The notes: generated by a model from the letters alone, not told the origin. Shown: positions 21,934 to 37,072, counted from the first letter of the stretch. The stretch: DNA of 64,000 bases from Candidatus Saccharicenans sp. (GCA_024653215.1 JANLFU010000010.1:19625-83624); one strand, 5' to 3'. Numbers and translations are program-made.

Positions 21934-22573
21934 TCTTAACCTCCTTTGAGATGTGCTGAATATTATTCGAATTTTTGAATTAATTGCAACTGGTTTTTTT
22001 AGCCCGGCAGGCCGGGTTCAGATACGGAAAACTTCAGGTGTTTAAAGCAGACAGGCGGGGTATTCCTGGCCCGTACAGAGGCCGGGCTGGATGACAGGAC
22101 ATGATTGTTCCTTTATTAGGATAATCCAGGCGAAACCCGAGAGAGTGCCCTTACAGGCCAGAGGCACGATTCAAATCCCACTCCAACCATCCGGAAACGA
22201 TCTCCTGCCCCGGCCAGTTCTTTAATTCTTAATTTTTTCTATTAAGTTTTCTTGTAAGCCTGCTCGTCTTTTACTTGACAGGGATAGACCAAAAGTTTAA
22301 TTTAGAAGCATAGCGGGAGGCCAATACAGAGAAACCGGGGATGGGTAAGTATTGCTTTTTGAAGCCGTGTCCTGTCCTGCACGGGAAGAATTCCGCATCC
22401 AATGGCCCGAATCCATGCATCCCGGCAATCCCTTGTATTTTTATCGGAATAGTAGGATAATGGAAGAGTCATGACAGCCGACAGGATTGACCGGCGACCT
22501 GAGATAAACACCAGGCCCGGTTTTCATAACCGGATTAGACCTGACTCAATAGTAACCAAAAAGGAGGCTTGAT

Positions 22574-22813
22574 ATGTCCGAACTTACACCAGATGTCACC
22601 CTCGATAACAGCGGGCTGGCCTGTCCCATGCCAATCATCAAGACCAAGAAGGCCATCGACGGGATGCAAGTCGGCCAGGTGCTGAAGATGATCGCCACCG
22701 ACCCCGGTTCCATCCCCGATGTCCAGGCCTGGGTCAGCAAGACCGGTCATGAACTTCTGAAGCATGAAACCGAGGGCAACAGGTTCATCTTCTACATCCG
22801 CAAGACAAAATAA
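22574..22813 (+). CDS. tusA: TusA-family sulfur carrier protein.
   Basis: LDNSGLACPMPIIKTKKAI contains the CPxP active-site cysteine motif of TusA/SirA. 79 aa. GGAGG RBS. Confidence 0.85.
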   Translation: MSELTPDVTLDNSGLACPMPIIKTKKAIDGMQVGQVLKMIATDPGSIPDVQAWVSKTGHELLKHETEGNRFIFYIRKTK

Positions 22814-23056
22814 CAGCCGTCAGGGAAGACCTGTCTTCCCCGGCCCTTAGCATAAAAGCCCCGGGCTGAAGGAGAGCTAAGAGTGGTGGGACTCAAGCGG
22901 GAGGCTTTTTTCGGAAAGCCGGTTAATCCCTCTCTGCCGGGAATATTTTTCAATCCGAACTATCCCACACGATACTTACCCCTTACCACCACAAACCATT
23001 TCAGCCACCCGTCTCGGAATTTAAGTCAAGCTAACTTCAAAAAAGGAGGATAAATA

Positions 23057-23530
23057 ATGCCTGAAGGAAAAAAGAGACTGGCCATCATCTGCCTGCACGG
23101 CAGTCTTGACGTGGCCTTTGCCACCTTCGTCCTGGCCACGGCCGGGGCCGCCATGGAAATGGAGACCGCCGTTTATTTTGCCTTCTACGGGCTGGAAGTC
23201 CTCAAGAAGGGGAAAATCAACAAGCTCAAGGTTTCACCGCTGGCCAACCCGGCCATGCCGGTGAAAATTCCCAACATCATTGCCATGCTGCCCGGGATGA
23301 CCGCCGCGGCCACGGCCATGATGAAATCCTGGATGAAAAAATCCAAGGTGGCCACCCTGGGCGAACTGCTGGACACGGCCCGGGAACTGGGCGTCAGGCT
23401 TATTGCCTGCCAGATGAGCATGGACGTCATGGGGATCAAGAAGGAAGACCTCATAGACCGGGTTGAAATCGGCGGGGCGGCTACCTTCCTGGAATTTGCC
23501 AGCCAGGATGCCATCACCCTGACCTTTTAG
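23057..23530 (+). CDS. DsrE/DsrF-family sulfur-transfer protein (DsrE-like 1).
   Basis: DsrE/DsrF fold signature (LAIICLHGSLD..., conserved Cys in IACQMS). AGGAGG RBS. Confidence 0.7.
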   Translation: MPEGKKRLAIICLHGSLDVAFATFVLATAGAAMEMETAVYFAFYGLEVLKKGKINKLKVSPLANPAMPVKIPNIIAMLPGMTAAATAMMKSWMKKSKVATLGELLDTARELGVRLIACQMSMDVMGIKKEDLIDRVEIGGAATFLEFASQDAITLTF

Positions 23531-23539
23531 GAGGAAGCC

Positions 23540-23908
23540 ATGGCCGACGATAAAATCCTGATCATCATGACCAGTGGCCCGGACACACCCCGGCGCTGTG
23601 CCACACCCTTTTTCTTTGCCACTCTGGCCACCGCTATGGATTATGATGTCACCATGTTCTTCACCATTGACGGAACCCTGCTGCTCAAGAAAGGTCTGGC
23701 CGATACAGTTTTCCCCAAGGAAGGAGGCAAATCGGTCGGCGAATTCCTGAAAGAGGCCATGGACTCCGGGGTCAAGATGACCGCCTGCACCGCTTCCCTC
23801 GAACTTCACGGCCTGAGCCCGGAAGACCTGATTCCCGAGGTCAAGATGGTCGGTGGAGCTTCCATGTGGCAGATGGCCGAGGAAAGTAAGACTGTCTTAA
23901 CTTTCTGA
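23540..23908 (+). CDS. DsrE/DsrF-family sulfur-transfer protein (DsrE-like 2).
   Basis: ILIIMTSGPDTPRRCATPFFFA with a conserved cysteine. The 9-nt spacing from the previous gene indicates translational coupling. Confidence 0.7.
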   Translation: MADDKILIIMTSGPDTPRRCATPFFFATLATAMDYDVTMFFTIDGTLLLKKGLADTVFPKEGGKSVGEFLKEAMDSGVKMTACTASLELHGLSPEDLIPEVKMVGGASMWQMAEESKTVLTF

Positions 23909-23930
23909 GCGAATCAAAAAGGAGGAAACC

Positions 23931-24377
23931 ATGGCCATAATTCGCGGCTGTAACCTTCCCGAAGACCTCTACTATTACCCGGAAAAGCACCTGTGGCTAA
24001 AGCCGCTCGGTGGAAACCTCTTCCGTATCGGACTGACCCCCATCGCCGGAAAACTGGCCGGCGGTAAACTTAACGCAGTAACCATCAGGTCCAAGAACAT
24101 CGGCCAGGAAGTCCAGCATGGGAAAAGCCTGGCCACCCTGGAGAGCAGCAAGTACGTGGGTCCGGTGCCGGCTCCCATTACCGGCATCGTCAAGTCTGGA
24201 AACGACAGGCTGGCCGCCGACCCCAACCTGGTCATCAGCGACCCTTACGGCGAAGGCTGGGTGGCCGAGATCGAAGCCACGAAGTGGGACCAGGAAAAAG
24301 CTGCCCTGCTGACCGGGGCTGAAGGCCTGGCCGAATACGAAAAGAAACTGGCAGCGGCCGGGATCTCCTGCGGGTGA
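23931..24377 (+). CDS. GcvH-like lipoate-binding protein (LbpA-type) that is not part of a glycine cleavage operon.
   Basis: YYYPEKHLWLK matches the GcvH EHEWV motif, and TLESSKYVGPVPAPITGIV matches the lipoyl-lysine motif ESVKAxxDxYxPxxGxV. No gcvT/P is nearby. Confidence 0.75.
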   Translation: MAIIRGCNLPEDLYYYPEKHLWLKPLGGNLFRIGLTPIAGKLAGGKLNAVTIRSKNIGQEVQHGKSLATLESSKYVGPVPAPITGIVKSGNDRLAADPNLVISDPYGEGWVAEIEATKWDQEKAALLTGAEGLAEYEKKLAAAGISCG

Positions 24378-24456
24378 TATTTTTTGGGTGCGCTGGAAGA
24401 TTAAAAATTAAAGTTTATAAATCGCGAAAAAATAATTCCTTCGCCAAGGAGGGCAA

Positions 24457-25608
24457 ATGAAGGAAAAAACGATTTATGAGCACTTGAGGGAAAAGGGGCT
24501 CTCCCGGCGGGACTTCATGAAACTCTGCGGCACCATTGCCGGTATGATGGGCCTGGAGTTCGTACCGCCGGTCAAAGCCCTGGGCAAAACACTCGGACCG
24601 AGCCCGGAAGAAGTGGTGGCTCAGGCCCTTAAGACCAAGCCGAAAGTTCCCATCATCTGGCTGGAGTTCCAGGACTGCGCCGGGTGCAGCGAAGCCATCT
24701 CCCGCTCCAGCTCTCCCCTTCTCAGCAACCTGGTCCTAAATGACATTGCCATCGAGTACCACGAAACCCTGATGGCTGCGGCCGGCTTCCAGGCCGAGAA
24801 GGCCAAGGAAGAATGCATGAAGAAATACTTCGGGAAATACGTGCTGGTGGTTGAGGGCAGCCCTACCCTGGCCGATGACGGCATCTACTGCACCGTGGCC
24901 GGAAAAAGTAACCTGGACCTGCTAAAGGAAGCTGCAGCCGGGGCTGCTGCCGTCATCGCCACCGGAAACTGCGCCTGCTTTGGCGGAATCCCGGCAGCCC
25001 ATCCCAACCCGACCAGGGCCGTCGGCGTGGCCGACCTCATCAAAGACAAACCCGTGGTCAACATACCGGGCTGCCCGGCCATTCCTGAAGTTACCACCGG
25101 AACCATACTCCATTTCCTCATCCTGGGCCAGTTGCCTGAGACTGACCAGCTGAAAAGGCCTTTGCCCTTCTATGGCCACACGGTTCACGACCACTGCCTG
25201 CGCCGGCCATTCTACGAAGCCGGAAAATTCGCCGGAAGCTTCGACGACGAAGGAGCCAGGAAAGGCTATTGTCTTTACCGACTCGGTTGCAAGGGCCCGA
25301 CCACTTACAATGCTTGCGCCGGCCTGAAGTGGGAACGCGGCCTTTCCTATCCCGTTCAATCCGGCCACCCCTGCCTCGGCTGTTCCGAGCCTCATTTCTG
25401 GGATGGCGGCGGCTTCTACCAGGGTCAGTCGGCTCCAATCGTACGGCTTGATAAAAGTTCCACGGCCACCCTGGTCGGAGTCGGCGTGGCGGCCGGGGCC
25501 GCCCTGGCTGGCCTCAACGCTGTCAAGAAGAGCCGGGCCAAAAAGGATCTGAAAAAAGATCAGTCTCAGGCCGCCGGGTCTGATCCCGGGTCAAAGAAGG
25601 AGGGCTGA
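24457..25608 (+). CDS. hynS: [NiFe] hydrogenase small subunit, TAT-exported, with a C-terminal membrane anchor.
   Basis: Twin-arginine signal SRRDFMKLCG. Fe-S cysteine clusters (CAGCSEA, GNCAC, CPAIPE, GCKGPTTYNACA, CLGCSEP). A C-terminal hydrophobic helix. Confidence 0.9.
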   Translation: MKEKTIYEHLREKGLSRRDFMKLCGTIAGMMGLEFVPPVKALGKTLGPSPEEVVAQALKTKPKVPIIWLEFQDCAGCSEAISRSSSPLLSNLVLNDIAIEYHETLMAAAGFQAEKAKEECMKKYFGKYVLVVEGSPTLADDGIYCTVAGKSNLDLLKEAAAGAAAVIATGNCACFGGIPAAHPNPTRAVGVADLIKDKPVVNIPGCPAIPEVTTGTILHFLILGQLPETDQLKRPLPFYGHTVHDHCLRRPFYEAGKFAGSFDDEGARKGYCLYRLGCKGPTTYNACAGLKWERGLSYPVQSGHPCLGCSEPHFWDGGGFYQGQSAPIVRLDKSSTATLVGVGVAAGAALAGLNAVKKSRAKKDLKKDQSQAAGSDPGSKKEG

Positions 25609-25609
25609 G

Positions 25610-26287
25610 ATGAACTGGACGAATATCTTGAATTTCAGCCGCGGGCCACTGCTTCATGTGGCCATGATAATTTTCGTGGCCGGCCTGAGCTACCGGCTGG
25701 TCCGGGTTCTTTTGCTCGGCTGGGCGAGAGACAGGGCTAAGAACAAGGGCAGCAAGCTCTGGGGGGTAATCGTCAATTACCTGAAGGGCCTTTTCGTCCT
25801 GCCGTTTATTCCCTGGGTCAGGCGCACCTTCCGCCACAACGAGCTGACCTTTATCGCCGGCGGGCTGTTCCACCTCAGCCTGTTCCTGGTCCTGGTTTTC
25901 GGCACGGCCCATATTTTAGTCTGGAAGAGCCTCTGGGGTTTCGGCTGGAAGGGCCTGCCAACGCCCATCCTGGCTTTCTTCTCGGCCGCGGGCATAATTT
26001 CCATGATTGTCCTGCTGATAAACCGGCTCACCCACCCGGTGTTAAAAATGCTGACCAGGTTCCCGGTCTGGATAAACTGGCTGGTGGTTTTCCTGCCGAT
26101 GATAACCGGCTTCATCATGGCCAGGCACCTGTGGTTCAGGTACGAGGTGATTTTCAGCCTGCACCTGATTTCGGTCAGCCTGCTTCTAATCTGGGTTCCC
26201 TTCGGCCGCATCTCCCACTTCCTGTTTTACTTCTTTTCCAAGACCATCCACGGAGCCCAGGCTGGTAAGCGCGCGGTAACGCCCTGA
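25610..26287 (+). CDS. isp1: Isp1-like di-haem cytochrome b membrane subunit (NarI/DsrM-like).
   Basis: 225 aa with 5-6 TM helices and conserved His in the helices. Its position between hynS and an HdrD-like gene matches the Isp-type hydrogenase architecture. Confidence 0.65.
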   Translation: MNWTNILNFSRGPLLHVAMIIFVAGLSYRLVRVLLLGWARDRAKNKGSKLWGVIVNYLKGLFVLPFIPWVRRTFRHNELTFIAGGLFHLSLFLVLVFGTAHILVWKSLWGFGWKGLPTPILAFFSAAGIISMIVLLINRLTHPVLKMLTRFPVWINWLVVFLPMITGFIMARHLWFRYEVIFSLHLISVSLLLIWVPFGRISHFLFYFFSKTIHGAQAGKRAVTP

Positions 26288-26301
26288 AAAGGAGGCAAGC
26301 C

Positions 26302-27567
26302 ATGAAAAGCCAGAAAACGCAATCAGCCATAAACACCTACCTTAAGGAGACAGGTGGCTGGGTGGCCAGTCAGCTTGAGGCCTGTACCCGCTGCGGCATC
26401 TGCGCCGAAGCCTGCCATTTCTACCAGGCCCTGGGCAATCCAGAATATGCTCCCATCTGGAAGCTGGAGCCGCTGCGCCGGGCCTATGAGCAGCGCTTCA
26501 CGGTGGCCGGCAAGCTGAAATTAGCCCTTGGCCTGGAGAAAAAGCTCGCCGACTCCGACCTGGAACACTGGAGCAAAATCGTCTACGAGGCCTGCACCGT
26601 CTGCAACAAGTGCGCCCATGTCTGCCCGATGGGCATCCAACTCGGGCCACTGATTCACGGGGTCAGAGCCGGGATGGCTGCGGCCGGAGTGGTGCCCGCG
26701 GACCTGGCCGAAGCCACGGAGAAGCAGAAAACCGTCGGCAGCCCGCTGGGGGTTACCGACGAAATGTGGCGGGAAAGAATCGACTGGATCACCGACGAAT
26801 GGGAAGCTCAAATACCAGTTGATAAGGCCGGGGCCGAGAGCCTGGTAGTTTTCACCTCAATTGAGCTTATGAAATTTCCGGATAACCTGGCCGCGGTGGC
26901 CAGGATTCTCAACAGGGCCGGAGAAAACTGGACGGTGAGCTCAACCGGCCGGGAAGTGGTTAACTTCGGCTACTTTGAAGCCGACGAGGAGCTGACCAGG
27001 CTTTTCATGTACCGGGTCTTCAAGGCGGCCGAGGAGCTGGGCGTCAAGCGGATCATCATCAGCGAATGCGGTCACGCCTACGACGCTTTTCGCTGGGCAG
27101 CACCCAACATGATGAAAGTTCCAAAGGGAGTGGAAATCGCCCACATCAGCGAGTACATCCACCAGCTCTGGAAGACCGGCCGGATCAAGCTCAAAGAAGG
27201 AGCCTTTGACGGGGAGACCATCACCTTCCACGACTCCTGCAAAATTCAGCGCCGCGGTGGCATCATCAAGCAGCCGCGGGAGCTGCTCAGGGTACTGGCT
27301 CCCAGGAGTTTCAAAGAAATGACGCCCAACAAGGAGCAGTCCCTGTGCTGCGGCGGCGGGGGCGGTGTCATCTCCATCAAGGAAGCCGACGCCAACCGCT
27401 ATGCCGTCTTCGAGATGAAAATTGAGCAGCTCCAGGAAGTCCAGGCCAGGGCCGTCTGCATGGTCTGCAGCAACTGCCGTTTGCAGTTCGTGGACAGCGT
27501 GGGGCATTTCAACCTGCCGGTAAAAGTCCACGGCCTGGCCGAGCTGGTTTCCAAGGCCCTGGTTTAA
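26302..27567 (+). CDS. isp2: Isp2-like HdrD/DsrK/GlpC-family Fe-S protein with a CCG domain.
   Basis: Two ferredoxin-like CxxCxxCxxxCP motifs (CTRCGICAEACHF; CTVCNKCAHVCPMG), plus CCG-domain cysteines (SCKIQ...CCGGGGG; CMVCSNC). Confidence 0.75.
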   Translation: MKSQKTQSAINTYLKETGGWVASQLEACTRCGICAEACHFYQALGNPEYAPIWKLEPLRRAYEQRFTVAGKLKLALGLEKKLADSDLEHWSKIVYEACTVCNKCAHVCPMGIQLGPLIHGVRAGMAAAGVVPADLAEATEKQKTVGSPLGVTDEMWRERIDWITDEWEAQIPVDKAGAESLVVFTSIELMKFPDNLAAVARILNRAGENWTVSSTGREVVNFGYFEADEELTRLFMYRVFKAAEELGVKRIIISECGHAYDAFRWAAPNMMKVPKGVEIAHISEYIHQLWKTGRIKLKEGAFDGETITFHDSCKIQRRGGIIKQPRELLRVLAPRSFKEMTPNKEQSLCCGGGGGVISIKEADANRYAVFEMKIEQLQEVQARAVCMVCSNCRLQFVDSVGHFNLPVKVHGLAELVSKALV

Positions 27568-27582
27568 GGAAAGGAGGGGAAA

Positions 27583-27903
27583 ATGGCATCCTTTAATCTT
27601 ACCCCGGTGGAAAAAGGAATCCTCAGGTGCCGTCACACCGGCCCCTTTACCCCTGAGGACATTCAATCCCTGACGGTTTTCTTCAGGGAATACCACGGCA
27701 AGCTGCTGATAGACCTCAGCGGAACTGACCCGTCCGAATGCCTGCGGCACATCAGGCACATGAGGCCGATCATGCCAACCGCGGCCATTTTCGGGGCCGA
27801 AATAGACCCCAAAATTCTGGAGATAGACCGCAGTTACTACGCCAACGAGGTGCGCTGGTTCCGGACCGAAAAAGAAGCCCTGGAATGGCTTCGCAACCAG
27901 TAA
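27583..27903 (+). CDS. Hypothetical 106-aa protein inserted between isp2 and hynL.
   Basis: Strong RBS (GGAGGGG) and tight spacing in the operon. No recognisable family. Confidence 0.5.
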   Translation: MASFNLTPVEKGILRCRHTGPFTPEDIQSLTVFFREYHGKLLIDLSGTDPSECLRHIRHMRPIMPTAAIFGAEIDPKILEIDRSYYANEVRWFRTEKEALEWLRNQ

Positions 27904-27918
27904 TGGGAGGAGGACAAA

Positions 27919-29658
27919 ATGGCTAATCGAATCGTCATCGATCCTATAACCAGGATAGAAGGTCACTTAAGGATTGAAGCCGCGATCGATGGGAACAACA
28001 CCATCACCGAGGCCTACTCGGCTGGAACCATGGTTCGCGGCATCGAAAACATCCTGAAGAAGCGCGACCCGCGCGATGCCTGGGCCTTTGCCCAGAGAAT
28101 CTGCGGGGTTTGCACCACGGTCCATGCCATTGCCTCCATCCGGGCGGTAGAAGACGCGCTAGGCATAAACATTCCTAAAGCAGCCAACCTGATGCGAAAC
28201 ATGATCATCGCCCAGCAGTACATCCATGACCACGTGATGCATTTCTACATCCTGCACGCCCTGGATTTCGTGGACGTGGTCAGTGCCCTGAAAGCTGACC
28301 CGAAGAAAACCTCGGACATCCAGCAGAGCATCTCCGGCTGGCCCAAATCCTCCCCGGCCTACTTTGCCGAGGTCCAGAAAAAGGTTCAGGCCATCGTCGA
28401 TAGCGGCCAGCTATCGCTTTTCAGCAATGGCTACTGGGGGCACCCGGCCTACAAGCTCCCGCCGGAAATCAACCTGCTGGGCGTGGCTCACTACCTGGAG
28501 TGCCTGGACTGGCAGTCACAGGTGACCAAGATCCACACCATCTTCGGCGGCAAGAACCCGCATCCCAACTTCGTGGTGGGAGGGGTGCCGCTACCCATTG
28601 ACATGAACTCGGACCAGGCCCTGAACGCCGAGAAGCTGGCGGTGATAGCCGATTCCATCAAGAGGATGAACGACTTCGTTGACCAGGTTTACCTGCCGGA
28701 CCTGCTGGCCGTGGCTCCCTATTACCTGGAATATGCGGCGGTCGGCGAAGGGTTGGGTAATTTCCTGGCCTGGGGGGAATTTCCTGAAGGGCAGCTCAAC
28801 GAAATTGATAAGCTGATTTTCCCCAGGGGTGTCATCGTCAACCGTGACCTGAAGAACGTTATCGTGCCCGACCCGAGAGATGCGGCCAGGATGAAAGAAT
28901 TCATCACCCATAGCTGGTATAAGTACAGCCAGGGCGACGAAACGGGCCTGTTTCCCTGGGAAGGCGAAACAGTCTTTAATTACACGGGTCCAAGACCGCC
29001 TTACGAATACCTCAACGTCGAGGGCAAGTATTCCTGGTTGAAATCACCCCGCTGGAACGAGCTGCCGATGGAAGTCGGCCCCCTGGCCCGGGTGCTGATT
29101 CTTTATGCCACGGGGCACAAGGAGACGGTTGCCCTGGTCAACGCCGTTCTGGAAAAGCTCAGGGCTCCGGTCAGCGCCGTGTTTTCGACGCTCGGACGGA
29201 CGGCGGCCAGGGCCATTGAGACCAAGGTCATCGCCGGGCTGCTTCAGAAGTTCTATGACGAGCTGGTGGCCGAGATTAAAGCCGGAAACACCGACACCTT
29301 CAACGACGAAAAATGGGAGCCCCGGACCTGGCCGAAGAAGGCGCTCGGTTTCGGCTATACCGAGGCGCCGCGCGGAGCCCTGGGGCACTGGGTGGTGATA
29401 GAGAACAGGAAAATCAAGAATTACCAGATAGTGGTGCCGACCACCTGGAATGCTTCGCCCCGCGACCACAGGAACCAGGCCGGCGCCTATGAGGCTTCGC
29501 TGGTCGGAACTAGGCTGGCCAACCCCGAACAGCCGCTGGAGATTCTACGGACGCTTCATTCCTTCGACCCGTGCCTGGCCTGCGCCGTGCACCTGGTCGA
29601 CACCAGCGGGAAGAAGGTCGGAGAAGCGGCCACCGGCTTTAACCTGGTTGTCCGCTGA
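27919..29658 (+). CDS. hynL: [NiFe] hydrogenase large subunit.
   Basis: N-terminal RIEGH and RICGVC (CxxC) motifs. C-terminal DPCLACAVH (DPCxxCxxH), followed by a 21-aa extension that is the expected substrate of the maturation endopeptidase. Confidence 0.92.
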   Translation: MANRIVIDPITRIEGHLRIEAAIDGNNTITEAYSAGTMVRGIENILKKRDPRDAWAFAQRICGVCTTVHAIASIRAVEDALGINIPKAANLMRNMIIAQQYIHDHVMHFYILHALDFVDVVSALKADPKKTSDIQQSISGWPKSSPAYFAEVQKKVQAIVDSGQLSLFSNGYWGHPAYKLPPEINLLGVAHYLECLDWQSQVTKIHTIFGGKNPHPNFVVGGVPLPIDMNSDQALNAEKLAVIADSIKRMNDFVDQVYLPDLLAVAPYYLEYAAVGEGLGNFLAWGEFPEGQLNEIDKLIFPRGVIVNRDLKNVIVPDPRDAARMKEFITHSWYKYSQGDETGLFPWEGETVFNYTGPRPPYEYLNVEGKYSWLKSPRWNELPMEVGPLARVLILYATGHKETVALVNAVLEKLRAPVSAVFSTLGRTAARAIETKVIAGLLQKFYDELVAEIKAGNTDTFNDEKWEPRTWPKKALGFGYTEAPRGALGHWVVIENRKIKNYQIVVPTTWNASPRDHRNQAGAYEASLVGTRLANPEQPLEILRTLHSFDPCLACAVHLVDTSGKKVGEAATGFNLVVR

Positions 29659-30020
29659 AGCTGCACACAATCTAGGTTTAAGAAGTGATTGGACGGCCAA
29701 GAGCTTGAAACGCCGGGACTGGCCCGTTAACCAGGTGAATCATAATTCCGGAGGAGTAAGAGCACAGACCGGGCACTGGCAACGGCAGATGATAGAAACG
29801 TTTGAAAAATTGAAGATATCTAACCGAAAAAGAACAAACGGCCCGGTTGGGGTTCCAGCCCTTCAGGGACAAGACGCTGTTCAGAAAACCGCCTTATTCC
29901 AGGACGGCCACAAATGGCAGGTAGCTGCTAACCTGGGTAAAACTGGCGTGCGGTCAGCTGTCCGGACCAGAAAGAAGCGGCAGTCACAACGTGTCGTCAT
30001 GGGGACGAAACCTATTAGAT

Positions 30021-30040
30021 ATATGAATGGTTATTCATAT
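30021..30040. promoter_or_regulatory. Perfect palindrome ATATGAA-N6-TTCATAT in the hynL-hynD intergenic gap; candidate transcription-factor operator.
   Basis: 7-bp inverted repeat with a 6-bp spacer, 38 nt upstream of the hynD start. The same half-sites and spacing recur at 58481..58500. Confidence 0.45.
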
Positions 30041-30077
30041 GTCCTGAAACTGGCCGAATCTGAGGGCAGAAACTGAA

Positions 30078-30569
30078 ATGACCAAGAGAATTGTGGTGCT
30101 TGGAGTGGGAAACATCCTGAACCGGGATGAAGGAGCGGGAGTGCAGGCCCTAAAAGAACTGGAAAAAATTCTACCCGCTGGCCTGAAGCCGAAGGTTGAG
30201 CTGGTAGATGGCGGGGTGCTGGGGATGGACCTTCTCCCCTACGTGGAACGGGCCACTCACCTGCTCGTCCTGGATGCGGCGGATTTCCAGGGCCGGCCGG
30301 GAGAAATCCGGGAGTTTCCGGGAGGGGCGCTAAAAACATTTTTCTCAGGCAAGATTTCCTGGCACCAGCTCGGCTTCCAGGAGGTGCTGGAAGTAGCCCG
30401 GGTCAGAGGGCACTATCCGGGACAGGTTCACCTGATCGGCGTTCAGCCGGGGGACATGGAAGTCGGACTGGGCTTAAGCGAAGCTCTGGAGCTTTCCGTG
30501 AAGGACATGGCCAGAAGGGCCCTGGATATACTGAAAAACTGGCTCGAAGATACTGACCATGCAGGATAA
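30078..30569 (+). CDS. hynD: Hydrogenase maturation endopeptidase (HyaD/HybD/HynD family).
   Basis: IVVLGVGNILNRDEGAG ... LLVLDA is typical of the family. 163 aa. Confidence 0.8.
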   Translation: MTKRIVVLGVGNILNRDEGAGVQALKELEKILPAGLKPKVELVDGGVLGMDLLPYVERATHLLVLDAADFQGRPGEIREFPGGALKTFFSGKISWHQLGFQEVLEVARVRGHYPGQVHLIGVQPGDMEVGLGLSEALELSVKDMARRALDILKNWLEDTDHAG

Positions 30570-30906
30570 ATTCCGGAGGATTACCCCTCAAATAAAAATG
30601 TTAACTTGCACCATCTACAGGTCCAGGACCAAGTACAGGAAACAGAAGAGTCACCATGCGCTTCAGGTTCAAGTGGCAGCAAGAATCCTGCCTGTGCGAA
30701 GTCTTAATCAAAGGCTTCTGGCCTTTACCAGATATTCAGCTCCAGAAACCCGAACTCTGAAGCCTGGATTGAGGCATTAATAAAACAAATTTCCGAGGGA
30801 TTGATTTATAAAACTAAATAAGGCAAAAAAGGCATTAATTACCAAAATGGGGCTAATCAAAAAACAAACGATAAATCATCTTAAGGACCTGGAAAGGAAA
30901 TAAAGG

Positions 30907-32007
30907 ATGGACGGGAATCATAGGAAAAGAATAAGGGGCATCGACCTGGGGGAAGTGCCGGCCGTTAGGTCGCAGACTTGCTACCATGCTGTCGGCTACG
31001 CCTTTGGACCCAAAACTCCTGATACCATCATCCTGGTCAGCCCCGCGAGTCCCTATGTCTGTGTCGGCTTCCACCAGGAAGCGGAGAGGGAAGTTGACCT
31101 GGAATACTGCCGGCAGGCCGGGCTGCCCGTCTACCGGCGCGAAGTCGGAGGCGGCGCTGTCTATCTCGACCGGAACCAGCTTTTCGTGCAGTGGATTTTC
31201 CACCCGGAAAGCCTGCCCCTCGAGCTTGAGGATAAATTCAGGTTCTACGTTGAGCCAATTATCCTCACCTACCGGGAGCTGGGAATTGAGGCCTCTTACC
31301 GCCCGGTTAATGACATCCACGTAGCCGGAAAGAAAATCGGAGGCACGGGCGCGGCCAGGATCGGCCAGGCGGACATCCTGGTCGGAAGTTTCATGTTTGA
31401 TTTTGATAAGAAAACGATGGCCAGGGTGCTCCGGGTTTCCTCAGAAAAGATGCGTGACAAGGTCTTCCAGAGCCTGGAGCAGTATATGACCACGATGAAA
31501 GAACTGTTGCCGGAACTTCCCGCCAGAGAGATTGTTAAGAGAATTTATCTGAATAAGGTGGCAGAACTGCTGGAAGCCGAAGTAGAGGCAGGCGGAATGT
31601 GCGAGGCAGAACTTCAAGAGGCGGAAAGGCTGGACCGCCTTTTCCAGAGCGAGGACTGGATTTTCCAGAAGGGACCGCTGCGCCGGCCTTCCGTCAAGAT
31701 CCACGAAGATGTCCACGTGCGCGAGGTGGATTATAAAGCTCCGGGCGGATTGATCAGGTTGACAGCCAGGATCAGGACGGAGGGCGGAAAACCGATCCTG
31801 GATTCGGTCTGGATTTCCGGCGACTTCACCGCCATTCCCAAGGAAGGTATATTCATCCTGGAAGATAGGCTGCGGGGTATTGCCATCGAGGAAAAAAGCA
31901 TCGGTGAAGCGGTCTGCCGGGCTCTTGGAGAATCGGGGCTGCAGTGTCCCGGACTGACAGAACAGAGCTGGATTTCTGCCCTGCTCAGGCTGACCGATTC
32001 CGGGTAA
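30907..32007 (+). CDS. lplA: Lipoate-protein ligase A family protein.
   Basis: HVAGKKIGGTGAARIG matches the LplA lysine-loop motif (GRKISGSAQ). 366 aa with a C-terminal accessory domain. Confidence 0.7.
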   Translation: MDGNHRKRIRGIDLGEVPAVRSQTCYHAVGYAFGPKTPDTIILVSPASPYVCVGFHQEAEREVDLEYCRQAGLPVYRREVGGGAVYLDRNQLFVQWIFHPESLPLELEDKFRFYVEPIILTYRELGIEASYRPVNDIHVAGKKIGGTGAARIGQADILVGSFMFDFDKKTMARVLRVSSEKMRDKVFQSLEQYMTTMKELLPELPAREIVKRIYLNKVAELLEAEVEAGGMCEAELQEAERLDRLFQSEDWIFQKGPLRRPSVKIHEDVHVREVDYKAPGGLIRLTARIRTEGGKPILDSVWISGDFTAIPKEGIFILEDRLRGIAIEEKSIGEAVCRALGESGLQCPGLTEQSWISALLRLTDSG

Positions 32008-32869: not shown

Positions 32870-32907
32870 AGGGGGACACAATATCGTGTCCCCCGTTCTA
32901 TTTTTTC
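32870..32907. terminator. Bidirectional rho-independent terminator shared by ftn (+) and the transglutaminase-like gene (-).
   Basis: GGGGGACAC-aatatc-GTGTCCCCC is a perfect 9-bp stem. It is preceded by an A-run and followed by TTCTATTTTTT. Confidence 0.75.
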
Positions 32908-34979
32908 CTGAGGACTATCTGCTGACTGTCACGAGCCAGGACAAAGTCAAAAAACTCTTTCAGGTGAATATACTCGTTGACCGGAAATAGATTTTTCTTG
33001 ATGGCCAGCCGCCTTTCCACGCGCAACTGACCCGGCTCATCCTGGCTACAGGCCAGGTTAAAACCGGCCCGTTCCGAATCCCTGGTCTTAGCTTCGGGAA
33101 GCGCCTCCACCTCGTAGCCATCGGGTAATTCGATTATGATTTCGTCAATCTCAGCGTACGGGTAATTGAAATAAACCGGGTATTTCCTGAAAGCGGAGCG
33201 GAAAGGATAGCGGCCCGGATTGGTCAGGGCATAGACCGGAAGCAACAGCTTGTCACCGGCTTCATGTATCACCCCGGAAACCGTGGCCTCAAACTCAGCA
33301 GCCAGTTCGGCTGATCTTTCTTTAAGCCCCGTAAGATCCTTTAGCTTAACCTTACTGCCGGCTGGTAGTTTCTTGAGCAGCTCTTCTTCCAGGATTTCCT
33401 TAAACTTCATTGCATCCTTTTCCCTGTTACCAAACTTCCTTGATAGGGCTTCCTGTCCCCTGTATTCTACCCGGATTGTGCCGGTCAGATTGCCCTGGCC
33501 ATCAGGTCGCAATTTCGCTATTTGCCTGCAGCTTGAGTCATCAGCCGAAGTCGAGGGGCTGGTGAAAAAGCTCATCCGGTCATTCTCGAAGGTCAGGGCC
33601 GTGGTCCCGGTCCTCGGCCAGTAAACCATCTCGTATGGGCAACCGGGCAACCCGGGGTCAAACGCCTGGAACCTATTTCCAATTTTTACCATGACAATTT
33701 CCGAATCTAACTGCTCCTTGAACAAGGGGATATCAGCCTTGAAAATCTTTTCGTCTCGACTGGCCACCCTGACCAGGTAGGTCTCGAAGCCCGCCGCCCG
33801 GGCCAGGGCGGCAAAGGTCCTGGCAATCTGGTTCTTATACCCATAATTCCTTTTTAGAACGTCCCTGACATCATTGTTTGGCTTGATCTTTTTCCATTCT
33901 TTTTCTGACATTGACGGGACATAATCCAGGTTCTTTATGTCCTGGACACGCTCATATAGTTTCCTCAATTTAACTTCGGGGTCAGTTGCCCCTTCGACCA
34001 GGGCCAGAACCTCTTTTTGCAGACCTTTCCCGCCAGTCATAAATTCCTCATAAATTTGTTTCCAGGAGCCGGCCGCTTTCTCCCAGTATTCATCGTTACT
34101 TCTGATGTCTGGAGGGAGATAATAAATCTTAAAAGAAATCTTTTCGGCATTTTCCGGCGGCATAAATTCTTCTCGTAAAAAGGGCGGGATATCATTTACT
34201 TCCAGTTCCAAACCTTTTTCAATCCTTTTCGGGAGGACGTTCCGAAGGTTATTGGTTACCCAGGCCATGTTGTATTTGCCGCCACTGCTAACCCCGGTAA
34301 CCGGGTCAGCTAAAAAAGTATATTTTGCTTTTTTTATATAGATGGAATCCTGTAATTCCCAGTTGACGGCAGACTGAGAGTAGAAATCATCCATCATGAT
34401 AAAAACCGCGTTAATACTGATCGACAGAACTCCATCGGTGATTATCCATAAAGGGCCCGGTTTCTCACCCGGTGACATCTCGTATTCATAATCAATTATC
34501 TGTCCAGCCGAAACACCGGGAATGGCCAGGGTCTTGATTCGGTTTTCAAACATTCCCTGCCTGGAAGCAATCTTATCCATTGTTTCCGGCACGACTTCAC
34601 GACGGCGCCCGTCAGTTTCATAAACGACAACCTTGATGTTTTTTACATCATTCAGCAGGGGAACATATGGAATTTCAAGGTTGGCATAATCTCTGCCGGC
34701 CGGGCTCAGGATTTTAATTCTCTTGAAGACCGATTTCACCTTTTTTTGATTATCATCTATTCTTTCATAATACAGGCAGACGGCCGGAGCCCCGGGGAGT
34801 TCCGGCAGGTCGCTCATGGCCAGGTCTTCAGGAGTTATTGGAGGCCTGGGCCGGGCCGGTTCCTTGGTCTGAGCGGAAAGTCCGAAATCAAGGACGGCAA
34901 TCACCAAAATCAGCAGAAGGATCATCTGGCCTAAATGATAACCCGATTTATGCTGTCGGAATGAACAGCGAATTTTCAT
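32898..34979 (-). CDS. Secreted DUF3857/transglutaminase-like protein. It is a paralog of the upstream gene but lacks the catalytic Cys.
   Basis: Signal anchor. Global similarity to 34991..37072. Where the paralog has YGDCKDKATLLAAL, this protein has YGYKNQIARTFAAL (Cys to Lys). Confidence 0.55.
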   Translation of the reverse strand: MKIRCSFRQHKSGYHLGQMILLLILVIAVLDFGLSAQTKEPARPRPPITPEDLAMSDLPELPGAPAVCLYYERIDDNQKKVKSVFKRIKILSPAGRDYANLEIPYVPLLNDVKNIKVVVYETDGRRREVVPETMDKIASRQGMFENRIKTLAIPGVSAGQIIDYEYEMSPGEKPGPLWIITDGVLSISINAVFIMMDDFYSQSAVNWELQDSIYIKKAKYTFLADPVTGVSSGGKYNMAWVTNNLRNVLPKRIEKGLELEVNDIPPFLREEFMPPENAEKISFKIYYLPPDIRSNDEYWEKAAGSWKQIYEEFMTGGKGLQKEVLALVEGATDPEVKLRKLYERVQDIKNLDYVPSMSEKEWKKIKPNNDVRDVLKRNYGYKNQIARTFAALARAAGFETYLVRVASRDEKIFKADIPLFKEQLDSEIVMVKIGNRFQAFDPGLPGCPYEMVYWPRTGTTALTFENDRMSFFTSPSTSADDSSCRQIAKLRPDGQGNLTGTIRVEYRGQEALSRKFGNREKDAMKFKEILEEELLKKLPAGSKVKLKDLTGLKERSAELAAEFEATVSGVIHEAGDKLLLPVYALTNPGRYPFRSAFRKYPVYFNYPYAEIDEIIIELPDGYEVEALPEAKTRDSERAGFNLACSQDEPGQLRVERRLAIKKNLFPVNEYIHLKEFFDFVLARDSQQIVLRKK

Positions 34980-34990
34980 TCGTGCCTCCT

Positions 34991-37072
34991 TCAGTCCGGA
35001 TTGTTGACCTTCTTGAGGAGCAACCGGCGCCGTTCTTCGCCGGAGAGCAACCTGAACATCTCCAGGATTTCATGGAATCGGTCGGGTGGCAGATAATCCT
35101 GCTTGATTTTGAATAACCGCTTCAGCCGCAGCGTCCCCCCATCGAGTTCCAGACGGCTGTAATAATCGGCAAATCCGTTACTGAGTTCAACCGGCCCCGG
35201 GAGGACTTCCACGGCGTAACCTGCCGGGAGCTTGATTTCAAACTCGTCCTGGCTGGTGCCAACCATAGATAACAGGACAGGATATTTCCGGTCGTCTTTC
35301 TGTTTTAAGATCTCATAGTCGTCAACCATGGCCAGGATATTAGGCCTGAAGCTGAAAACGTCGCCGGTCTTACTTAGGTAAGAGGCAGCCCGGAAGCTGT
35401 ACTGAAGCACAACTTCCCTGTCCGGTTCGTTAAGGTTAAGGTATTGATAATTTTCGAGGGTGAAGGACCCGACGCTCCGTGCCAGGAAATCTTCCATATC
35501 CTTCCGTCTCTCCTGCTCGTGGACATCCCGGAGCCTCAACCGGACCACTTCCGCCTGGAAGCCAGCCAGGGTTTCGGTCACATCTCCTTTAAGCGTGCCA
35601 TCAGCCGAAAGCACAAATTGTCCCCGGCGATTTAACTCCAAGCTGTCCGGGGATGAGCCAGGAAAGTGGATCAACCGGCTGTGCTCCCCGGCCACCAGCA
35701 GTCCGTTGTTTTTCTGCAGGTAGAATGGTAGCCGCCCGGGCGGGCTGTGGGGCATGGTCGGGTCGAAGATCAACAGCCGGCCCAGGCCCGGGATTGAGAC
35801 CACGGCCTCAGAACTTTCGTACAGCTTATCATCAGGCAACTTTATCCCGAGGATAACATGATTAAACCAGAACAGCGAAACCGGGGAATTCTCTTTGACC
35901 ACCTGGGGCTCAATATTGACAATGAAATAATACGAATCGATATTTAGGGAACTCAGCAGGGCGGCCAGCAGGGTGGCCTTATCCTTGCAGTCCCCGTAGC
36001 GGTTGGCCAGGATTTCCGAAGCCCGGTGAGGTTGATACCCGCCAATACCTATCTGGATGGAAACGTACCTGATTTCCTGCTGGACGAAGGCCGCCAGTTT
36101 CTCTATCCGGGCTCTATGGTCCGTCAACCCGGAAACCAGCTCGCTGGCTTTTACCCTGACACTCTCATCCGGCTGGCGCCGCTCCCTTGAGAGCTGCTCA
36201 TACCATAGTCCCATATCTTTCCAGTCGGAGAAAAAATAGCCGAACCTTGGGGCGTTTTTAGTCTTGAAACGAACCAGCAGGCGCCCAGCGATGGCTTCAT
36301 CCGGGGGTTTGAGCGGTTCATCTTTTATGGCCGGGACATCCGACAGCTTCACTGAAAATGACTTTGGTCCAATGGTCACCGAGGATTCAGGCCAGTTTAT
36401 CCAGTCCAGCCGGGGCTGGCAACCTGAAGGATACTCGGCCTGGTAGATGGCCTGAAGGACTGGAAAGCGAAGCTGAAAAATGAAGAGGTCTTCCAGCGAA
36501 AGGGGCTTGACTTCCTCTTCCCATTCATAACCGATCAGGCTGCCTCTGGTTACTTCCGACATGACCAGGAACAGTGTCTTGACATCCCAGTAAAGCGTAT
36601 CCGGCGCCAGCGAGGTGGAAATAGCCGATTTTAGGTTGTAATCCTGCTTGCTTCCGTCCGGGTTGATAACCCAGGCGTTCATCTTGCGGACCCGGGTATT
36701 AAAGGTGTTGGCCCTGACCAGAAATTTCAGTCGTTCTATGCCTTCCGACCTCAGGATCTTGATAGCCTGCCTGCCGTAGCGAACCAGGTTCCCGGAGGAG
36801 CTGTAGGTTAACTTCTGCTCATGAAGAAGGTAAATTCCCTCTGTTTCGGGCGCCAATTCAGGCAGCGGTGTTTCTGCCATCTCGGTCAGCCAGCGTGGCG
36901 GTTTGGACCCTCCGGGAGCCGCCTGGGCCTGAATACCTAAAAGTGTCACAATTAAGATAATCCCTAATAATATCTGCTGACATCCGTGGCATAAGAAACG
37001 CTTGCGAGATAATTTGGCCCGGCTTTTAAGAAGGAAATTAAGAGGGTTTATTTGACCTGGGTGTCCTTTCAT
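34991..37072 (-). CDS. Secreted DUF3857/transglutaminase-like cysteine protease-fold protein with the catalytic Cys present.
   Basis: ANRYGDCKDKATLLAALL is the transglutaminase-core Cys motif. Signal anchor. 693 aa. The 11-nt gap to the downstream paralog suggests an operon. Confidence 0.6.
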   Translation of the reverse strand: MKGHPGQINPLNFLLKSRAKLSRKRFLCHGCQQILLGIILIVTLLGIQAQAAPGGSKPPRWLTEMAETPLPELAPETEGIYLLHEQKLTYSSSGNLVRYGRQAIKILRSEGIERLKFLVRANTFNTRVRKMNAWVINPDGSKQDYNLKSAISTSLAPDTLYWDVKTLFLVMSEVTRGSLIGYEWEEEVKPLSLEDLFIFQLRFPVLQAIYQAEYPSGCQPRLDWINWPESSVTIGPKSFSVKLSDVPAIKDEPLKPPDEAIAGRLLVRFKTKNAPRFGYFFSDWKDMGLWYEQLSRERRQPDESVRVKASELVSGLTDHRARIEKLAAFVQQEIRYVSIQIGIGGYQPHRASEILANRYGDCKDKATLLAALLSSLNIDSYYFIVNIEPQVVKENSPVSLFWFNHVILGIKLPDDKLYESSEAVVSIPGLGRLLIFDPTMPHSPPGRLPFYLQKNNGLLVAGEHSRLIHFPGSSPDSLELNRRGQFVLSADGTLKGDVTETLAGFQAEVVRLRLRDVHEQERRKDMEDFLARSVGSFTLENYQYLNLNEPDREVVLQYSFRAASYLSKTGDVFSFRPNILAMVDDYEILKQKDDRKYPVLLSMVGTSQDEFEIKLPAGYAVEVLPGPVELSNGFADYYSRLELDGGTLRLKRLFKIKQDYLPPDRFHEILEMFRLLSGEERRRLLLKKVNNPD

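Follow-up and report, generated by a model that had tools for sequence, protein, structure and literature searches.

The 64,000-nucleotide (nt) stretch of Candidatus Saccharicenans sp. DNA analysed here (GCA_024653215.1 JANLFU010000010.1:19625-83624, referred to as the window) carries a run of eleven genes in which sulfur-carrier proteins, a lipoate-binding protein and a lipoate-protein ligase accompany an Isp-type [NiFe] hydrogenase. Families were assigned with Pfam and NCBIfam profiles, applying the NCBIfam cut-offs, and the assignments upheld the families named in an earlier interpretation made from the DNA alone (the sequence-only reading). All eleven genes lie on the + strand and encode, in order, TusA, a DsrE2-like protein, a DsrE-family protein, an LbpA-type lipoate-binding protein with the fold of the glycine cleavage H protein (GcvH), the hydrogenase small subunit HynS, the membrane subunit Isp1, the iron-sulfur protein Isp2, a protein of 106 amino acids (aa), the large subunit HynL, the maturation endopeptidase HynD and an LplA-type ligase (Table 1). 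The best reading of these genes is that they form one respiratory module, and the functional link between the carriers and the Isp1/Isp2 pair is well supported.

Table 1. Position and family assignment of the eleven genes and of the region upstream of them (ORF, open reading frame; TAT, twin-arginine translocation; AF2, AlphaFold2)
Feature	Position	Strand	Evidence
Upstream non-coding region	21934..22573	.	Between a divergent outer-membrane protein gene and tusA; 0 ORFs of at least 90 aa
TusA sulfur-carrier protein, 79 aa	22574..22813	+	PF01206, 89.9 bits
DsrE2-like sulfur-carrier protein, 157 aa	23057..23530	+	PF13686, 156 bits
DsrE-family sulfur-carrier protein, 122 aa	23540..23908	+	PF02635, 75 bits
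LbpA-type lipoate-binding protein, GcvH fold, 148 aa	23931..24377	+	PF01597, 89.6 bits
HynS, [NiFe] hydrogenase small subunit	24457..25608	+	TIGR00391, 413 bits; TAT signal TIGR01409
Isp1, membrane cytochrome b-type subunit, 225 aa	25610..26287	+	TmcC-family membrane anchor, 110 bits; HmcE, 85 bits
Isp2, cytoplasmic iron-sulfur protein, one CCG domain	26302..27567	+	PF02754, 53 bits
106-aa protein, predicted STAS/SpoIIAA-like fold	27583..27903	+	AF2 model, structure matches
HynL, [NiFe] hydrogenase large subunit, Isp type (group 1e-like)	27919..29658	+	PF00374, 756 bits
HynD, hydrogenase maturation endopeptidase	30078..30569	+	PF01750 HycI, 91 bits
Lipoate-protein ligase (LplA-type), 366 aa, fused large and small domains	30907..32007	+	PF21948, 132.5 bits

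For the comparison across genomes, an alignment of the LbpA family was scanned against one genome per species of GTDB, which gave 80 loci of 20 kb, and the proteins of the window were mapped onto these loci and onto those obtained by exact-protein look-up. Every locus with an LbpA at least 48% identical to the query was taken as related, which yielded 30 loci, 27 from the scan and 3 from look-ups. Results showed that DsrE, LbpA, HynS, Isp1 and Isp2 are encoded in the same order and with near-equal spacing in all 30, with dsrE directly upstream of lbpA and lbpA directly upstream of hynS in every one of them. DsrE belongs to the strict core of the module. TusA was found in 26 of the 30 loci and DsrE2 also in 26 (one further match, in locus L016, was a cross-hit on the DsrE gene). 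HynL was likewise present in 26, three other loci being cut by contig ends and the complete locus L015 giving no HynL match. HynD followed hynL in 25 loci, LplA was the last gene of the cluster in 21 and was also present in L008, and the 106-aa gene stood between isp2 and hynL in 16. Because the same gene order recurs in 30/30 related loci, the arrangement is far beyond chance, and the pairing of carriers with hydrogenase singled out by the sequence-only reading is a constant feature of the related loci examined.

The hosts of these loci span at least five phyla and comprise Acidobacteriota, Chloroflexota, Bacteroidota/Ignavibacteria, Calditrichia and Actinomycetota; the many Chloroflexota among them include Anaerolineae, Caldilineaceae, Thermoflexales, Herpetosiphon and the isolate Oscillochloris sp. 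ZM17-4. More than 120 database clusters (90% identity) share at least 63% identity with the LbpA of the window. In a neighbour-joining tree all 31 operon-linked LbpA sequences fell into one clade with no intruders, and its sister group consisted of the first LbpA of loci with tandem LbpA genes. One of the latter, L043 from Alicyclobacillus tolerans, has genes for Etf, for a flavoprotein resembling HdrA and for CCG proteins resembling HdrB/C, which identifies it as a locus of the heterodisulfide reductase-like (sHdr) sulfur-oxidation system.

The LbpA-type protein aligns with solved GcvH proteins, which are its best solved matches in the PDB, and Lys74 of its ESSK motif falls on the lipoyl-lysine of GcvH 3IFT. 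Lys74, Cys7 and Cys147 were invariant in the family alignment (n = 31), Cys147 occupying the last or second-to-last position of the chain. All GcvH models scored under their cut-offs (NF002270, 90.7 against 117; TIGR00527, 64.6 against 115.85), and the canonical GcvH proteins that turned up in this survey lack terminal cysteines and have the motif STKS. LbpA proteins are defined by a lipoyl-lysine and two strictly conserved cysteines, one near each terminus, that are missing from GcvH (Cao et al. 2018). Since the lipoyl-lysine and both terminal cysteines are invariant here, the GcvH-like protein of the operon is, as judged by its sequence, a true LbpA. The window contains no hdr-like (shdr) cluster, so that the protein lies outside the genomic context by which the family is defined, and it comes with a dedicated LplA-type ligase, by which it would be lipoylated. 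In the AF2 model of LbpA, of moderate confidence (predicted local distance difference test, pLDDT, 72), Cys7 and Cys147 are placed on unstructured termini that flank the GcvH core and a C-terminal helix. Ordinary glycine cleavage was rejected as the role of this protein: gcvT and gcvP were not found in the 64-kb window, the GcvH models stayed under their cut-offs and the LbpA-specific cysteines are present.

The ligase itself scored below the cut-offs of the profiles concerned (TIGR00545, 126.9 bits; LplB, 30.9 bits); at least 95% of 22 sequences retain its Lys143, which lies in a GKK(I/V)GG motif. Among sHdr-linked ligases, that of A. tolerans (L043) shows 43% identity to it and that of L046 54%. 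The active-site cysteines of the sulfur carriers are likewise conserved: Cys17 of TusA, in a CPMP motif, is invariant in 27/27 sequences, Cys118 of the DsrE2-like protein (157.8 bits with NCBIfam DsrE2, below the cut-off of 210) in 28/28, and Cys20 and Cys83 of DsrE are kept in 31/31 and 30/31, respectively. DsrE is 45% identical to the DsrE of sHdr locus L043. The view that TusA, DsrE and LbpA with a dedicated LplA represent the carrier toolkit of sHdr loci is borne out by the LbpA signature, by the sHdr-linked sister clade and by the kinship of the ligase to sHdr-linked ligases. In two related loci (L023:10137-11900 and L028:15243-16800), the hydrogenase operon is followed just downstream by additional genes of GcvH-like and LplA-like type, the GcvH-like protein being more distant (34-35% identity) and devoid of terminal Cys.

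HynS carries a TAT signal at residues 15-38 with conserved arginines (RR17-18), retains all cysteine and histidine ligands of its clusters and ends in a hydrophobic anchor, and the translation of HynL contains the nickel-binding motifs RICGVC and DPCLACAVH. A TAT-exported small subunit and group 1 nickel-binding motifs in the large subunit are expected of Isp-type (group 1e) enzymes. The best solved relative of HynL is the membrane-bound Hyn enzyme of Allochromatium vinosum (3MYR, 813 bits), followed by group 1d at no more than 708 bits. The order hynS-isp1-isp2-hynL is the hallmark of Isp-type (group 1e) [NiFe] hydrogenases, and this defining arrangement, with the 106-aa gene between isp2 and hynL, is found in the window. 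Enzymes of group 1e have been reported to be bidirectional, and Isp-type hydrogenases have been linked to H2-dependent sulfur reduction; as cytoplasmic acceptor of Isp2, a structural-modelling study of 2024 guessed 'NAD+ or ferredoxin'.

Six histidines of Isp1 are conserved in 29-30 of 30 sequences. Isp2, which is 97% identical to a protein of 'Candidatus Saccharicenans subterraneus' (Aminicenantes/Acidobacteriota), gave a single PF02754 match, and thus has one CCG domain with five cysteines in addition to two 4Fe-4S motifs, as is required of DsrK. Both CX2CX2CX3C motifs (C28/31/34/38 and C98/101/104/108) were intact in 30/30 sequences, as were C256-G-H258 and C313, and C349, C350, C389 and C392 were kept in 29/30. 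Profile scores were all under the cut-offs, the best being DsrK with 224.7 bits (cut-off 400), followed by HmcF and TmcB with 218 bits each, and the PDB matches comprised only HdrB2 and a mycobacterial Fe-S reductase. Isp2 Cys389 and Cys392 align with Cys231 and Cys234 of HdrB2 (9SFI_C). According to a 2026 preprint, DsrK has a strictly conserved, non-ligating Cys-x-His (Cys329-x-His331 in A. fulgidus) and an Asp where HdrB has its 'supernumerary' Cys234. The C256-G-H258 of Isp2, upstream of its CCG domain, shows the same pattern as this Cys-x-His. Because the DsrK cut-off is not reached and Cys392 is kept where DsrK has Asp500, Isp2 is a relative of DsrK and HdrB and not a DsrK.

The 106-aa protein gave only a weak SpoIIAA-like profile match. 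Its AF2 model (pLDDT 88) resembled STAS domains best among PDB structures (template modelling score 0.55-0.59), which points to a STAS/SpoIIAA-like fold. Cys16, His18 and Cys53 are invariant, and its database relatives, 265 clusters in all, are close and of about the same length.

Two variants of the operon, both from Chloroflexota, bear on what the carriers are tied to. In L051:4836-8794 and L052:5669-9450, the genes for TusA, DsrE2 and DsrE are followed by those for a cytochrome b resembling DsrM, a CCG protein resembling DsrK (323 bits) and LbpA, and hydrogenase genes are absent. Their CCG protein and Isp2 have the motifs ECGH, HDxC, CCGGGGG and CxNC in common. Since these loci keep the carriers and such a pair without a hydrogenase, the carriers travel with the cytochrome b/CCG pair of Isp1/Isp2 type and not with the hydrogenase as such; the cluster is possibly a quinol-linked version of the same carrier system, and no description of it was found in the literature searched. 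In the second variant (L008-L010; L008:13696-18390), FdnG, FdnH and FdhE are inserted between isp2 and hynL. FdnG is the alpha subunit, with selenocysteine, of a formate dehydrogenase-N (TIGR01553, with 1095 bits clear of its cut-off), FdnH is the beta subunit, and neither FdnI nor another cytochrome subunit of its own was found for the inserted enzyme in L008-L010. This suggests that hydrogenase and formate dehydrogenase use one common Isp1/Isp2 module in these loci, and the presence of two outward-facing donor enzymes on a single Isp1/Isp2 pair argues that electrons run from the outside to a cytoplasmic acceptor.

The spacers between the eleven genes bear out the sequence-only reading in part. 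It had described them as short or overlapping, which holds for seven (1-79 nt) and does not hold for three, namely TusA-DsrE2 (243 nt), HynL-HynD (419 nt; 29659-30077) and HynD-LplA (337 nt; 30570-30906, with just 40% G+C). At the same positions the spacers of the relatives measure 3-12 nt, so the long spacers are peculiar to the lineage of the window. The term 'fused' is better replaced by 'co-operonic', the genes being separate. Mobile or repeated elements were rejected as an explanation of the long spacers, in which no repeats were detected and of which no copies exist elsewhere in the window or in related loci. A 95-aa gene called by the Joint Genome Institute (JGI) at 29789-30076 has 0 homologues in related loci and was treated as spurious. 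The TusA-DsrE2 spacer (22814-23056) is only 91% identical to the JGI contigs L001 and L002, compared with 99-100% for the flanking genes, and thus looks like a local hot spot of strain variation.

No terminator-like site was found on the + strand in the operon spacers, the terminator scan as a whole being at chance level (18 found, 15.3 expected), and no Rfam family matched the region. The lbpA-hynS spacer, where a strong terminator would have separated carriers from hydrogenase, is AT-rich, contains a ribosome-binding site and shows neither a hairpin nor, by sequence scan, a terminator-like site. A terminator or RNA element splitting the operon was rejected on these grounds. The promoter presumably lies in the upstream non-coding region, where a weak sigma-70-like site was noted at 22096-22125; the promoter scan as a whole performed at chance level. 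In 22 of the 30 related loci, a regulator with an excisionase-type helix-turn-helix and a PocR sensor domain is encoded directly upstream of tusA or dsrE (e.g. L019:6681-7445). The window lacks this regulator; a non-coding region of 640 nt takes its place.

The operon is flanked by genes of unrelated function (fucosidase, TPR and GWxTD proteins, hydrolase, outer-membrane protein, ferritin, transglutaminase-like proteins). Pfam searches of ORFs of at least 90 aa found no hdrA, etf, gcvT/gcvP, dsrAB, sox or radical-SAM lipoyl synthase gene in the 64-kb window, which also has no LipS1/LipS2 radical-SAM genes and no catalytic genes of sHdr type I (shdrC1B1AHC2B2) or type II (shdrA/B3/etfAB). When the sHdr proteins of L043 were used as tblastn queries, the window yielded no homologue of sHdrA, HdrB/C or Etf; the matches were Isp2, LbpA and LplA only. 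A hidden sHdr system in the window was ruled out by these Pfam scans and by tblastn with a verified sHdr locus. The absence of hdrABC noted by the sequence-only reading was thereby confirmed within the window, and so was its statement that Isp2 is the only heterodisulfide-reductase-like protein there, Isp2 being the sole match to the CCG queries. Overall the sequence-only reading was supported: the gene order and best solved relative of the hydrogenase, the invariant lipoyl-lysine, the lack of gcvT/gcvP in the window, the lack of a terminator-like site between lbpA and hynS and the conserved pairing in the related loci each spoke for it. Two tandem transglutaminase-like/DUF3857 genes (32898-37072, - strand) look like paralogues; each of them, and also a GWxTD-domain gene (16475-18556, + strand), is exactly 693 codons long, which for the GWxTD-domain gene is probably a coincidence. 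Elsewhere, in the related locus L007, genes for DsrC and for a separate protein with a CCG domain precede the operon by about 5-8 kb (L007:1505-5358), and genes for TauE (sulfite-exporter family) and DUF1634 come directly after the ligase (L007:17333-18594).

We propose that electrons from periplasmic H2 (or formate) pass through Isp1 to Isp2 and from there to lipoyl-LbpA or to sulfane sulfur delivered by TusA/DsrE, with release of sulfide, and we assign this reading a probability of about 0.58. The data themselves establish the gene content, the families, the catalytic residues and the joint inheritance of the carriers with Isp1/Isp2; beyond these, we infer that the proteins interact physically, what the substrate is chemically, which way the electrons flow and how energy is conserved. 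In this scheme, outward-facing, membrane-anchored HynSL would oxidise H2, formate being a second donor in the Chloroflexi lineage with the in-operon formate dehydrogenase, and electrons would cross the membrane via the cytochrome b haems of Isp1 to cytoplasmic Isp2. The CCG domain of Isp2, a type of domain that in HdrB and DsrK carries a non-cubane [4Fe-4S] cluster, would cleave S-S bonds. Isp2 would have as its substrate the LbpA of the same operon, which would be lipoylated by the operon's ligase and whose flexible termini bear two more cysteines. TusA, DsrE2 and DsrE would take sulfane sulfur from persulfides, polysulfide or related species, and this sulfur would be either loaded onto LbpA or presented to dihydrolipoyl-LbpA. 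Isp2 would then re-reduce the resulting disulfide or polysulfane, setting H2S free. With protons released outside and consumed inside, the complex could act as a redox loop and generate proton-motive force without quinone. The net activity would be that of an H2:protein-bound-sulfur oxidoreductase in which LbpA takes the place of the heterodisulfide of coenzymes M and B (CoM-S-S-CoB) or of DsrC. The scheme is proposed because of the analogy with DsrMK/DsrC, the reported sulfur-reducing physiology of Isp-type enzymes and Methanosarcina Vho/HdrDE; in DsrK, electrons from haem b are passed via one non-cubane cluster to a protein-bound trisulfide and sulfide is released. The wider claim, that the module is a widespread respiratory H2 (and formate):protein-bound-sulfur oxidoreductase with lipoylated LbpA as physiological substrate of Isp2, as DsrC is for DsrK, is more tentative, and we rate it slightly short of even odds.

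Several observations weigh against the proposal. The only role described for LbpA is in sulfur oxidation, the opposite direction, and group 1e enzymes are reported to work both ways. Isp2 is not a bona fide DsrK, both by its score (224.7 against 400 bits) and by its Cys in place of the DsrK Asp. TusA and DsrE2 are missing from 4 of the 30 related loci, and LplA was not found within reach in four complete ones. Neither the operon nor the window encodes a sulfur importer or a sulfane-generating enzyme (rhodanese, YeeE, Psr, Sqr), and the three long spacers would allow hynD and lplA to be transcribed separately.

The main rival to this proposal is that the same complex runs in reverse. Isp2, LbpA and TusA/DsrE would in that case form a minimal sHdr-like unit oxidising sulfur or thiols, and electrons from carrier-bound sulfane sulfur or dihydrolipoyl-LbpA would flow to Isp1 and on to quinone, or to H2 evolution by HynSL as an electron sink. 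LbpA, TusA, DsrE and the special ligase are so far known from sulfur oxidation only, the sister clade of the operon LbpA is sHdr-linked, and both the reported bidirectionality of group 1e hydrogenases and the oxidative operation of DsrMK in sulfur oxidisers, which is established, would fit such a reversal. The composition of the complex fits it less well, since Isp2 has one CCG domain where sHdr has HdrB1/B2 and the flavoprotein HdrA, absent in the window. On thermodynamic reasoning, moreover, sulfane sulfur oxidation with protons as acceptor would be strongly endergonic. The inserted formate dehydrogenase, a donor-side enzyme, agrees better with flow from donor to cytoplasm, and most hosts appear to be anaerobes described as fermenters and not as sulfur oxidisers. 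All in all, we regard the oxidative direction as unlikely, yet as the alternative to be taken most seriously.

Somewhat less probable still is an H2-driven lipoyl reductase that does not serve sulfur respiration. LbpA would be kept in its dihydrolipoyl form as a general cytoplasmic dithiol reductant, for instance for persulfide or polysulfide detoxification or for thiol-redox homeostasis, and TusA and DsrE would be minor clients. A lipoyl disulfide is a chemically plausible direct substrate for a site of heterodisulfide-reductase type, the cluster contains no gene for a sulfur importer or terminal reductase, and four loci keep DsrE and LbpA without TusA and DsrE2. Against this, DsrE is retained in all 30 loci, and the two invariant non-lipoyl cysteines of LbpA speak for sulfur handling beyond dithiol/disulfide cycling. 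A TAT-exported, membrane-spanning respiratory hydrogenase would also be a costly investment for a housekeeping reductase. That the genes are neighbours only, with carriers and ligase serving, for instance, glycine cleavage, cofactor or thionucleoside biosynthesis or hydrogenase maturation, accords with the database label 'glycine cleavage system protein H' for LbpA and with the three long spacers of the window. It is nevertheless very improbable and largely refuted by synteny: order and spacing are kept across five or more phyla, lbpA immediately precedes hynS in every locus, and even loci that have no hydrogenase keep the carriers beside a DsrMK-like pair. The window has no gcvT/gcvP, and LbpA combines sub-threshold GcvH scores with its specific cysteines, so that chance proximity and glycine cleavage can be all but dismissed.

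In the searchable full-text literature (subscription-only papers lay outside the search), no link of LbpA, GcvH-like proteins, TusA/DsrE or lipoate ligases with Isp-type hydrogenases or DsrK-like proteins was found, and publications on LbpA treat it as part of sHdr clusters. The sequence-only reading, which was aware of no description of this wiring, agrees with that result: within the literature searched, the modules are all known and their combination is new. The operon makes directly testable a question that has stood open since Isp-type hydrogenases were described, namely which acceptor takes the electrons of Isp2. It also places LbpA and its ligase outside aerobic or microaerobic sulfur oxidation, so far the one setting known for them, and suggests as a general rule that CCG proteins of the DsrK/Isp2 type act on small carrier proteins. 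If the proposed mechanism is true, the cytoplasmic partner of Isp-type hydrogenases is identified, lipoate gains a role in anaerobic sulfur reduction, and many 'fermentative' Anaerolineae, Aminicenantes, Ignavibacteria and Calditrichia would have to be recast as H2-consuming sulfur reducers. The module occurs in hundreds of database clusters and in abundant uncultured anaerobes, where its genes are currently annotated as 'glycine cleavage H protein' or 'Fe-S oxidoreductase'. Should it be a sulfur-reducing hydrogenase, metagenome-based estimates of H2 and sulfur turnover in sediments, aquifers and digesters omit a pathway.

Several known systems can be compared with the operon. LbpA resembles GcvH in fold and lipoyl-lysine motif and differs from it by its two invariant extra cysteines, its sub-threshold scores with GcvH models and the absence of gcvT/gcvP nearby. 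With the sHdr-LbpA systems of Hyphomicrobium denitrificans, Aquifex, Sulfobacillus and Thermomicrobium (Cao et al. 2018, Tanabe et al. 2023) the operon has in common LbpA, TusA, DsrE-family proteins and a dedicated LplA-type ligase, whereas the window is devoid of sHdrA, HdrB1/B2, HdrC1/C2, Etf and LipS1/LipS2, the CCG protein is the Isp2 of a membrane hydrogenase, and the likely direction is reduction instead of oxidation. The Isp-type (group 1e) HynS-Isp1-Isp2-HynL enzymes of Allochromatium vinosum, Thiocapsa and Acidithiobacillus agree with it in gene order, TAT-exported small subunit, cytochrome b Isp1 and CCG protein Isp2. In the Isp-type operons described so far, isp1 and isp2 alone are reported to stand between the structural genes, accompanied by maturation genes, and LbpA, TusA, DsrE and lipoate ligase go unmentioned, whereas here they are co-operonic and co-inherited; the hosts described are Proteobacteria, in contrast to the Aminicenantes, Chloroflexota, Ignavibacteria and others that carry the present operon.

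DsrMK(JOP)/DsrC likewise combines a membrane cytochrome b with a cytoplasmic partner in which a single CCG domain is joined by two [4Fe-4S] motifs and a motif of Cys-x-His pattern. DsrC carries sulfur on cysteines of its flexible C-terminal arm and the product is sulfide; the invariant terminal Cys of LbpA is predicted, in the structural model, to lie on an unstructured tail. Isp2 differs from DsrK by its score under the cut-off and by Cys392 in place of Asp500, the window has no DsrAB, and the proposed carrier is a lipoylated GcvH-fold protein and not DsrC. Electrons reach DsrMK from quinol, whereas in the present complex they would come directly from the hydrogenase. In the Hmc and Tmc complexes of Desulfovibrio (HmcE/HmcF, TmcC/TmcB), a CCG protein in the cytoplasm receives electrons set free by the oxidation of H2 or formate in the periplasm, and TmcC/HmcE and HmcF/TmcB are the profiles with the highest or nearly highest scores for Isp1 and Isp2, respectively. 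There, however, electrons arrive via periplasmic cytochromes c and not from a hydrogenase encoded between the subunits, and lipoate, TusA or DsrE carriers are not known to be associated. In Methanosarcina, VhoGAC and HdrDE join an outward-facing [NiFe] hydrogenase, a cytochrome b and a cytoplasmic CCG subunit for the reduction of a disulfide, with energy conserved by a redox loop. These are two complexes linked by methanophenazine, with CoM-S-S-CoB as substrate and two CCG domains in HdrD, whereas in the present case the corresponding functions are encoded in one operon and the proposed substrate is a protein-bound lipoyl group or sulfur.

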